Shown one piece after another: positions 1 through 3,000 of a stretch of 64,000 bases of DNA. The number at the start of each line of letters is the position of its first letter. The stretch's first letter is position 1. The position numbers are program-made. The stretch comes from Escherichia coli (GTDB taxonomy: Bacteria > Pseudomonadota > Gammaproteobacteria > Enterobacterales > Enterobacteriaceae): assembly GCF_003018255.1 (NCBI RefSeq), contig NZ_CP027440.1; one strand, 5' to 3'.

Positions 1-3000
1 CTGAATTCTGGGGAACTGGTCTTAAATATGATGCCAATAACCTGTATCTGGCAGCAGTGTATTCAGAAACCCAGAATATGACGACCTTTGGTGATCAAGG
101 TGTTGCGGATAAAGCTCAGAATATCGAAGCCGTTGTTCAGTATCAGTTTGATTTTGGTCTGCGTCCGTCTCTGGCCTACCTTCAGTCCCGAGGACAGGAT
201 GTTATGGTTGGTGGTGTGAACCATGGCGATCAGGATCTGGTTAAATATATTGATGTCGGTGCGACTTATTACTTTAACAAGAATATGTCCACCCATGTTG
301 ATTATAAAATTAACCTGATTGAGGAAAGTGAATTTACCCGGAAAGCCGGTGTTGCGACAGATAATATCGTTGCTGTGGGTATGACTTATCAGTTCTGATT
401 ATTGCTGATAAGTATAATAAATACGGGCCGTCAGCCCTTACTGGCGGCCTGTATCAATGAAAACACAGTTTTCATTGGTCACTGCGATCAGCAATTGCCA
501 TCTGGCATGTGTTGATTTAACTTTCTGTTATTACCTTTATTGGTTTTATTTTAAATTGGACTTTTATTGTTCGGGGCGCGGTTGCGCCCCTTTTTTATGG
601 GCGGATATATGCAGGATATTCACGAAGAAAGCCTGAACGAGTCGGTTAAGTCAGAGCAGTCACCGCGGGTGGTGCTCTGGGAAATCGACCTGACGGTGCA
701 GGGCGGTGAGCGGTATTTTTTCTGCAATGAGCTGAATGAAAAAGGGGAGCCGGTGACCTGGCAGGGGCGTGAATATCAGGCGTACCCGATTGAGGGGAGT
801 GGCTTTGAGATGAACGGAAAGGGCAGCAGTGCCCGCCCGTCGCTGACAGTGTCCAATCTTTTCGGCCTTGTCACCGGGATGGCGGAGGATTTGCAGAGCC
901 TGGTGGGGGCCACGGTGGTCCGTCGCCGGGTGTATGCGCGTTTTCTGGATGCGGTGAACTTTGTGGCAGGCAATCCTGAGGCAGACCCGGAGCAGGAGCT
1001 GACGGACCGCTGGGTGGTGGAGCAGATGTCAGCGCTGACGGCCATGACGGCCTCGTTTGTGCTGGCGACACCGACGGAGACGGACGGTGCGCTGTTTCCC
1101 GGTCGCATCATGCTGGCGAACACCTGTATGTGGGATTACCGGGGCGATGAATGCGGGTATAACGGTCCGGCAGTGGCGGATGAGTTCGACAACCCCACCA
1201 CGGATATCCGGAAGGACAGATGCAGTAAATGCATGCGCGGGTGTGAGATGCGCGGCATGGTGGCTAATTTCGGCGGTTTCCTTTCCATTAATAAACTTTC
1301 GCAGTAAATCCCGTTTTATGACACAGACTGAATCAGCGATTCTGGCGCATGCCCGGCGGTGTGCGCCAGCGGAGTCGTGCGGCTTCGTGATAAGCACCCC
1401 GGAGGGGGAGCGGTACCAGCCCTGCGTGAATATCTCCGCAGAGCCGGAGGCGTATTTTCGTATTGCACCGGAAGACTGGCTGCAGGCACAGATGCAGGGG
1501 GAGATTGTGGCGCTGGTCCACAGTCATCCCGGTGGTCTGCCCTGGCTGAGCGAGGCGGACCGGCGGCTGCAGATAAAGAGTGCCCTGCCCTGGTGGCTGG
1601 TCTGTCGGGGTGAAATTCACCGGTTCCGCTGTGTGCCGCACCTGACCGGACGGCGCTTTGAACACGGTGTGACGGACTGTTACACCCTGTTCCGGGATGC
1701 ATACCATCTGGCGGGGATAACGCTGCCGGATTTTCATCGCGAGGATGACTGGTGGCGCAACGGCCAGAACCTGTACCTGGACAATATGGAGGCCACTGGC
1801 TTTTGCCGGGTGTCCCTGTCCTCTGCACAGGCAGGCGATATCCTGCTGTGCTGCTTTGGCGCATCGGTGCCGAATCATGCCGCCATTTACTGTGGCAACG
1901 GTGAGCTGCTTCACCATATACCTGAACAACTGAGTAAACGGGAGAGGTATTCTGAAAAATGGCAACGACGAACGCATTCTGTCTGGCGTCACCGCCACTG
2001 GTCCGCATCTGCCTTCACGGGGATTTACAACGATTTGGTCGCCGCATCAGTCTGTATGTGAACACGGCAGCGGAGGCCATCCGTGCCCTGTCGCAGCAGG
2101 TGCCGGGATTCCGCTGTCAGATGAACGAAGGCTGGTACCAGATACGTATTGCCGGTGAGGATACCGCGCCGGACCAGATATCGCCCCGACTGCATGAGCC
2201 ACTGAACCCGGGGGATGTCATTCATCTGGTTCCCCGGGCAGAAGGTGCCAAAAGTGGCGGAGTGTTTCAGGCCGTGCTTGGCGTTGCGCTGGTTGCGGCA
2301 GCTATCTGGATGCCGGGTATCGGTATTGCAGCCAGCAACATCATGTTTTCCATGGGCTCTGCAATGGCACTGGGTGGTGTGGCCCAGATGCTGGCCCCGA
2401 AGGCAAAGACGCCGGAGTACAAAAGCACGGATAACGGCAGACAGAACACGTATTTTTCGTCACTGGACAACATGATTGCTCAGGGGAATCCGGTGCCGGT
2501 GCCTTACGGTGAAATGCTGGTTGGTTCACGACGGATATCCCAGGACATCAGCACCCGTGATGAGGGCGGTGACGGGAAAGTGGTGGTTATCGGGCGGGGA
2601 TGAAAAAAAATCCCGCAGTGTTCGGCGCCTGCGGGAAGAGATACGAAGATTAACTTTAAGGAATTTTTCATTATTCTGGCAGATGAACTGTAACGCAGCG
2701 TGATTATGAGCACTACAGTCAGTGTGCGGAAATGTGAATAAACTCAGAATTTTTATTCACCGGAAGAGGATTGCCGGATATCGGTGGCAGAGGACAGAAG
2801 GCATCATGCCGGGTTCAGGGGATAAAAAAATCCCGCAGAACTCCGTGCTGCGGGAAGAGAACGATGTTGACTAACCTGTTGGCGTTTTATTTTTATTGAC
2901 CCGCAGAAACTGTAACCTGCCGGAATGCACTCTGCCACGGAGAATGACGGAAAATGTGAAGAAAATCAGAGTTTTTATTTATCCCGTGCATTCGTCTCTG

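Follow-up and report, generated by a model that had tools for sequence, protein, structure and literature searches.

Lambdoid prophages of Escherichia coli can carry genes for general porins of the Lc/NmpC type, and NmpC of prophage Perceval has been found to be expressed in the lysogen (PMC9928086). The transcript of such a porin gene can also give rise to a small RNA (sRNA), IpeX, which is 167 nt long and is described in a 2025 review as being made from the phage porin promoter, within the porin transcript, and then processed (PMC12197685). IpeX lowers both OmpC and OmpF, and its activity in trans has been shown experimentally (PMC8065619, PMC5069750), while the chromosomally encoded MicC blocks binding of the 30S ribosomal subunit through a 22-bp duplex near the ompC start (PMC5745476). 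Here we describe a related arrangement at the left end of a 64,000-nt stretch of E. coli DNA (assembly GCF_003018255.1, contig NZ_CP027440.1; 'the window'), where the 3' end of a phage porin gene is followed by a structured spacer and then by the tail gene L. An earlier sequence-only reading of the stretch had proposed a deletion remnant with an IpeX-like sRNA region. The best explanation of the whole, which we consider probable, is instead a porin moron placed between the tail genes M and L, with an IpeX-like RNA in its 3' untranslated region (3'UTR) that acts on the host porins.

The left end of the window contains the following features.

1-398, plus strand: 3' end of the porin gene, in frame from base 3, with the last 131 codons and the stop codon at 396-398
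399-598, plus strand: porin 3'UTR, a structured and putatively IpeX-like RNA element of ~200 nt, from the stop codon to the U-tract of the terminator
573-596, plus strand: intrinsic terminator, GGGGCGCGGTTGCGCCCC followed by T6, with seven G-C pairs and the loop GGTT, 12 nt before L
599-608, plus strand: right end of the cassette, with the Shine-Dalgarno-like GGGCGGA for L, replacing the TGATG overlap of M and L in empty sites
609-1307, plus strand: minor tail protein L, 232 aa (TIGR01600 phage_tail_L, 380.5 bits against a cut-off of 70.75; phrog_4199, phrog_18)

The spacer between the porin stop codon and the ATG of L at 609 is exactly 210 bp, and K, I and J lie downstream of L. The sequence-only reading had placed L about 210 bp after the porin and a strong terminator in the porin 3' flank, and both statements proved correct, the former to the base. 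The translation of 3-398 is identical to the C-terminus of the WP_000738904.1-type 'porin OmpC' of relatives and ends in ...VGMTYQF, the ...YQF signature of general porins. The same reading had remarked that the interval from the porin to L is free of genes for lysis, terminase, head, tail tube and tape measure. This is true, but trivially so, because in relatives these genes sit upstream of the porin, in a part of the prophage to the left of position 1.

The window belongs to the E. coli chromosome and contains a prophage integrated in ompW, adjoining yciE, yciF and the trp operon. More than 100 complete E. coli genomes match its first 1400 bases with 99.4-99.9% identity; the best 20-kb match was strain 05-3629 (98.4%, in a single piece), and the record NZ_CP027373.1 (98.4% over 20 kb) is the genome most like the window. 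Both NZ_CP027373.1 and NZ_CP028122.1 contain a complete lambdoid late region directly 5' of the porin gene. In strains 05-3629 and O43 RM10042 the order is Q; holin, lysozyme and Rz; HNH, terS and terL; capsid and portal; connector proteins and the major tail subunit; chaperones and the tape measure; and finally M, the homologue of which has 113 aa (phrog_14). The succession of tape measure, M, porin and L is kept in strains LZHX12, G8 and M18 (loci L003, L004 and L006) and, wherever the contig is long enough, in the prophage contigs from IMG/VR (n = 32), M being seen in 28 of these. In the relatives, then, the morphogenetic cluster is intact, in an unusual order, and upstream of the porin, which is the very finding that the sequence-only reading had named as counting against its proposal. 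Empty sites were sought in 5426 complete E. coli genomes with an artificial junction of the end of M and the start of L; the junction was uninterrupted in 1198 of them, with 98.0-98.5% identity among the best matches listed, and in the example that we fetched (L162) the TGA of M and the ATG of L overlap as TGATG. Alignment of occupied and empty sites puts the left boundary of the cassette 11 nt before the M stop codon, so that the last three codons of M are replaced, and the right boundary at the L ATG (609), exactly where homology with the empty site resumes. The corresponding positions in the relative L001 are 19025 and 20609, giving a cassette of ~1.58 kb.

These observations bear directly on the proposal of the sequence-only reading that a porin from near Q and the lysis genes had come to lie beside L when the genes for lysis, terminase and head, and most of those for the tail, were lost. 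The window alone cannot reveal what precedes the porin, and the reading was right that nmpC and lc lie in the late region near Q and the lysis genes, since the porins of DLP12 and PA-2 do sit between the two. One relative, L005, is moreover a decayed prophage in which IS66 replaces the tape measure gene; such loci can thus erode through insertion sequence (IS) elements, but this is not their general state. Against a deletion, the closest genomes, at 98-99.9% identity, carry the whole late region 5' of the porin; M stands directly before the porin in 28 of the 28 IMG/VR loci that reach upstream; the edges of the cassette fall at the end of M and the start of L, and the empty junction in the 1198 genomes is ~98% identical; and the nmpC gene of DLP12 is opposed to the flanking late genes quuD and essD, whereas the present porin is co-oriented with L. 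The deletion reading is already refuted for all the relatives examined and is highly improbable for the window itself; the comparison with intact relatives that had been suggested for mapping deletion endpoints gave the boundaries of an insertion instead. Because the late region is intact upstream in relatives and the M/L junction is empty in the 1198 genomes, we regard the porin as an insertion; as judged from these alignments, it is a moron of ~1.58 kb placed between M and L, in the orientation of the late operon, within an otherwise ordinary lambdoid prophage in ompW.

The full-length porin of the relatives has 387 aa and is 67-70% identical to Lc of PA-2, 57-60% to K-12 OmpC and 55-57% to K-12 OmpF. 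Its signal peptide is Lc-like, and both the signal peptide and the mature sequence are closest to Lc. Against the NCBIfam OmpC subfamily NF007841 it scores 504.9 bits, above the cut-off of 484, which explains the RefSeq label 'ompC', and it also matches phrog_410. The best identity to any porin in 50,697 phage records was 67.7%, and all 42 matches there were of the NmpC/Lc/OmpD type. On these similarities the porin is of the Lc/NmpC type and a distinct allele. The P1-like plasmid prophage P7 (AF503408.1 / NC_050152.1, 25534-26646) carries an nmpC-type porin that is 66.7% identical; carriage of the porin cassette thus extends beyond the lambdoid phages. Upstream of the porin gene, outside the window (L001:19116-19132), the 17-nt sequence CTTGCATTTACATTTTG is identical to a part of the K-12 ompC upstream region which we take to be the OmpR C1 box, and the phage porin may, from this match, be under EnvZ-OmpR control. 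Separately, TTTACATTTTGTTACGTA, also upstream of the porin, resembles a stretch upstream of ompF.

In order to describe the spacer as an RNA, we collected 14 distinct variants of it and applied RNAalifold and explicit pair counting to 10 of them. The resulting elements are as follows.

421-454, plus strand: hairpin 1, 14 bp, ATACGGGCCGTCAG / CTGGCGGCCTGTAT, with the loop at 435-440; three pairs changed on both sides
455-477, plus strand: hairpin 2, 10 bp, CAATGAAAAC / GTTTTCATTG; four of the 10 pairs compensatory, 100% of cells paired
477-485, plus strand: single-stranded GGUCACUGC between hairpins 2 and 3, invariant in 14 of 14 variants
486-517, plus strand: hairpin 3, with a 7-bp base GATCAGC / GTTGATT; one compensatory pair and two G-U alternations
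514-553, plus strand: A/U-rich linker, with the conserved motif GAUUUAACUUUCUGUUAUUACCUUUAUUGG at 514-543, a motif common to IpeX
573-590, plus strand: terminator helix, 7 bp, invariant in all variants, with no pairs changed

Over the 10 variants, 99.2% of the cells were paired, compared with 37-46% when the partners were slid, and eight pairs were compensatory; the observed covariation score was reached by none of 500 shuffles, and the single-sequence minimum free energy (MFE) of the spacer has a z-score of -7.75. G-U pairs are frequent overall, including several in hairpin 1; read from the opposite strand they would be A-C mismatches, which assigns the structure to the RNA of the plus strand. 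The spacer is thus a conserved structured RNA, in which the best-conserved unpaired stretch is the linker at 514-543. Hairpin 3 of the window subfamily contains a 13-nt insertion with a small stem of its own (496-507), which is missing from subfamilies B and C.

The IpeX of K-12 and PA-2 (L002:4341-4529, minus strand) likewise has three hairpins followed by an A/U-rich linker and a GGGGCG...CGCCCC terminator (z-score -8.8), and the two linkers share the motif AAC[U/C]UUCUGUUAU..UUACC(C)UUUAUU. Direct alignment of the spacer with IpeX, which the sequence-only reading had proposed as a check, gave a mixed outcome, blastn being blank and pairwise Smith-Waterman comparison only suggestive (p ~0.006-0.02), whereas covariance models linked the two families. 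A model built from the window family (R1) was searched against ~1 Mb of lambdoid prophage DNA together with K-12 ompC and ompF and PA-2 lc; it matched every IpeX locus over its full length and collinearly, with 23-42 bits compared with 16.6 bits for the best unrelated sequence, and it gave no match at the 3' flanks of chromosomal ompC and ompF. The reciprocal model from the IpeX family (R2) matched window 406-601 on the plus strand with 29.7 bits (E = 1.8e-5) and all 14 variants with 23-33.5 bits, the next score being 14.8 bits. A weak signal at 31702-31878 in the window (R1, 18.5 bits on the plus strand; R2, 14.8 bits on the minus strand) lies in an A/T-rich hairpin region and is probably due to chance. 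A permissive Rfam scan of 1-12000 found nothing at 1-608, but the same scan found no match in the K-12 ipeX region either, so that the silence of Rfam here is uninformative. Because the covariance matches are reciprocal and an Lc-type porin lies immediately upstream, we conclude that 399-598 is probably a diverged member of the IpeX kind. The earlier suggestion of an IpeX-like sRNA region thus holds at the level of sequence and structure, in position, architecture, reciprocal covariance matches and linker motif.

The possible targets of the linker were assessed with RNAduplex, by pairing the defined linkers of four lineages (window, subfamily B, subfamily C and IpeX) with 50-nt translation start regions; duplexes of whole sequences were long and meaningless and were set aside. 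The window linker (514-553) gave -24.9 kcal/mol with the ompC start, a value as good as which was found for 0.06% of genomic 50-mers, and -15.4 kcal/mol with the ompF start (2% of genomic 50-mers), while ompA, at -8.9 kcal/mol, fell with phoE and the phage porins' own starts in the range -6.5 to -9.4 kcal/mol. Over the four lineages, the values for ompC were -19 to -27 kcal/mol, with a genomic background fraction of 0-0.17%, and the ompC duplex energy was reached by at most one of 500 dinucleotide shuffles (0-1); those for ompF were -15 to -20 kcal/mol (background 0.1-2%). The values for ompA, phoE, the lc leader and the own leaders of the M-L porins, -5 to -13.5 kcal/mol, were not unusual. 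The phenotype reported for IpeX, in which OmpC and OmpF go down and OmpA does not, is of the same kind as this predicted pattern. The predicted window duplex spans -31 to -4 of ompC, through AAUAAAGG and then, with the Shine-Dalgarno sequence, AUAACAGAGGGUUAA; in subfamilies B and C the linker sequence is changed, and the pairing is predicted in a shifted register over the ompC Shine-Dalgarno sequence and AUG. For K-12 IpeX, the segments entering the antisense model are AACCUUCUGUUAUAU and CCCUUUAUU. Of 5370 E. coli genomes, 5364 match the ompC start region with at least 99% identity, and the K-12 target can therefore stand for any E. coli host. We also note that the invariant GGUCACUGC at 477-485 can pair, one G-U pair included, with GCAGUGGC of both the ompC and ompF leaders and may be a second contact.

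Window 527-553 (GUUAUUACCUUUAUUGGUUUUAUUUU) resembles bases 1-33 of MicC (GUUAUAUGCCUUUAUUGUCACAGAUUUUAUUUU), which, when scored in the same way, gave -22.5 kcal/mol on an overlapping ompC site, compared with -24.9 kcal/mol for the window linker. On these model duplexes, the linker at 514-553 is probably a seed directed against the ribosome-binding sites of host ompC and ompF. More generally, and tentatively, phage porin cassettes of both the IpeX and the M-L lineages could be porin-replacement modules, in which a MicC-like seed in the 3'UTR would pair with the host's ompC and ompF mRNAs at their ribosome-binding sites, the cassette's own leader being immune.

Several observations weigh against the overall interpretation. 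A/U-rich linkers pair readily with A/U-rich start regions, and the original 2006 abstract on IpeX by Castillo-Keller et al. is said to have reported no complementarity to ompC. The link to IpeX depends on a short motif and on covariance models, the calibration of which was shortened and the score of which comes in part from generic hairpin-plus-terminator features, and in distant-mode blastn of the spacer and IpeX against E. coli genomes and phages the two families never cross-match. A simple scan of the plus strand upstream of the porin in relatives found no sigma-70 consensus promoter, and the sequence 5' of the porin in this genome itself lies outside the window, the upstream order being known from relatives. 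The spacer could, alternatively, be a purely cis-acting 3'UTR, the hairpins of which guard the porin mRNA from 3' exonucleases while the terminator insulates L, with the complementarity to ompC and ompF as a by-product of A/U content. Covariation proves RNA structure and not function in trans, our scan of the spacer found no independent promoter, and the ompF pairing of the window subfamily is only moderately unusual (2-4.5% of background), all of which a cis-acting element would accommodate. We nevertheless consider it unlikely, because the most conserved stretch is an unpaired linker and not the stems only, because all four diverged lineages are still predicted to pair strongly with ompC and ompF, yet neither with ompA and phoE nor with their own starts, because subfamilies B and C have diverged and yet retain the predicted pairing, shifted over the ompC start codon, and because the related IpeX has the experimentally established trans activity cited above.

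An independent sRNA gene, with its own promoter and a primary transcript of ~170 nt ending at 598, as the sequence-only reading had envisaged, is improbable. The window subfamily does have a perfect TATAAT at 414-419, just 5' of hairpin 1, but other variants have TTAATA, GAACAA or AAATAA there, and the promoter scan of the spacer found no -35/-10 pair; a 3'UTR is favoured on both counts. IpeX, too, is described as made from the porin promoter and then processed (PMC12197685), and the lack of a conserved internal promoter is compatible with processing from the porin transcript. That the spacer encodes a small protein has hardly any probability at all: the open reading frame (ORF) at 457-636 (59 aa) is ATG-initiated, but indels of 1, 3, 4 and 13 nt in the variants break its frame, and it crosses the terminator and enters L out of frame.

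A porin moron with a trans-acting 3'UTR RNA would work as follows. The cassette comprises an OmpR-box-like upstream region, the Lc/NmpC-type porin, the 200-nt structured 3'UTR, the terminator and a putative new ribosome-binding site for L. The last of these would be needed because the insertion destroys the M-L overlap, and it is plausibly supplied, to judge from its sequence, by the last 10 nt of the cassette (GGGCGGA); the variants retain GG[C/T]GGA before L. Transcription of the porin in the lysogen would begin at a promoter of its own and end at 596, leaving the tail genes silent, whereas during lytic growth Q-modified RNA polymerase would pass the terminator and continue into L, K, I and J. 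The RNA at 399-598, either freed from the porin mRNA or within it, would act like the IpeX of PA-2 and DLP12, its MicC-seed-like linker (514-553) pairing with the ribosome-binding regions of host ompC (~-31 to -4) and ompF and blocking their translation. The start region of the phage porin, not being complementary to the linker, would be spared. The net outcome would be that host OmpC and OmpF are swapped for the phage porin, with changes in the cell surface and the phage receptors. An attempt to infer the receptor from J led to no conclusion on the use of OmpC, as the C-terminal 300 aa are only 49% identical to those of phage 434 J.

The spacer was found by blastn, at 72-100% identity, in ~110 of the 5426 complete E. 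coli genomes (~2%), and many of the carriers are cattle-derived or in strains named as Shiga toxin-producing E. coli (STEC). It was not found by blastn in the 50,697 phage records, the exact family pattern had no match in 100,044 species-representative genomes, and the window family was found only in E. coli. IpeX proper is present in 2515 of the 5426 genomes, in 36 phage records (at least 80% coverage), including PA-2 and 434, and in E. albertii. A motif bridging the two linkers had 75 matches in the 100,044 genomes, almost all due to chance in AT-rich genomes, and the only genuine IpeX among them was that of E. albertii; no family intermediate between the spacer and IpeX was found by this search. 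One match, in Intestinirhabdus, was rejected as an element since it lies inside an ORF.

A number of other features of the prophage deserve mention. Between J and the tail-fibre gene there is a toxin-antitoxin locus of the hok/sok type, with a sok match at 7252-7410 on the plus strand (51.1 bits, below the gathering score of 59) and an ORF at 7399-7539 (plus strand), the 46-aa product of which is Hok-like and is annotated as Hok/Gef in relatives. The tail-fibre N-terminal protein (7684-8952, plus strand) contains long collagen-like G-X-Y repeats at about residues 125-350. On the minus strand at 10713-10901, matches to C4 antisense RNA (78.9 bits) and to isrK (72.7 bits) stand immediately 5' of an ORF (10100-10708, minus strand) that is ORF6N/antirepressor-like and stands at the prophage end, resembling a P1/P7-type c4-ant immunity module in a lambdoid prophage. 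Beside yciE, at the prophage boundary, there is a 3' fragment of ompW (window ~11100-11250; L001:31157-31282); the integration of the prophage thus truncates the gene of another outer-membrane protein. Between I and J, a region of ~910 bp (2604-3513) has no ORF longer than 50 aa and no Rfam match, whereas the same gap is 242-343 bp in L004 and L006 and 60 bp in phage 434; this region could represent either a further slot for insertions or a moron in decay. Strain LZHX12 has a second insertion, between L and K (L003:4938-6962), carrying a ClpP-like protease, an Arc-family repressor, a YlcI/YnfO protein and a P22 antirepressor pseudogene. It seems that morons recurrently use the junctions between tail-tip genes as slots.

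Besides the porin-plus-IpeX cassette of PA-2 and DLP12, there is thus probably a second lineage of it, which has diverged strongly and occupies another phage module, and the comparison of the two lineages isolates a conserved core of three stems with compensatory changes and one unpaired motif. How IpeX acts has been described as unclear, and the motif suggests a mechanism that is open to test, in which the sRNA would pair with the MicC site and Shine-Dalgarno sequence of ompC and, in ompF, with the Shine-Dalgarno sequence. If this is true, IpeX would act by ordinary antisense occlusion of the MicC site, unlike the current description, in which complementarity was not found or was insufficient. 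A swap of OmpC and OmpF would alter the availability of phage receptors and the permeability of the outer membrane in lysogens, which may include the uptake of antibiotics.

The closest described porins are Lc of PA-2 and NmpC of DLP12, classical lysogenic-conversion morons that likewise are general trimeric porins of the OmpC/OmpF family in a lambdoid prophage; they have 365 aa compared with 387 aa for the present porin, and the region upstream of PA-2 lc is annotated with CRP sites, where the present porin has the ompC-like 17-nt stretch instead. The insertion site and orientation of the present cassette are unusual, in that the DLP12 cassette lies between Q and the lysis genes, on the strand opposite to them, while this one lies between M and L, co-oriented with the late operon. 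IpeX likewise follows a phage porin gene of the Lc/NmpC type directly and on the same strand, and extends from near the stop codon to a Rho-independent terminator that is near-identical in its GGGGCG...CGCCCC to that of our element, and it is likewise predicted to pair with the ompC and ompF start regions. It differs in being ~165 nt long rather than ~200 nt, the present element having a longer linker and an extra stem in hairpin 3, and the hairpin sequences of the two are entirely different. MicC, an Hfq-dependent chromosomal repressor of ompC, has an ompC site with which the predicted site of this linker overlaps, but its seed is the 5' end of a primary transcript encoded opposite ompN, whereas the seed-like stretch here is internal and in the 3'UTR of an mRNA; there is no overall homology between the two, and the likeness may be convergent. 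Finally, as in morons of the bor, lom and HK97 gp15 type, an extra gene, dispensable for virion production, has been inserted where related phages have two abutting genes, and it ends in a terminator of its own and presumably starts from its own promoter. The present cassette differs from these in breaking the translational overlap of M and L and plausibly supplying a new Shine-Dalgarno sequence, and in having, as predicted here, a regulatory RNA as a second payload.

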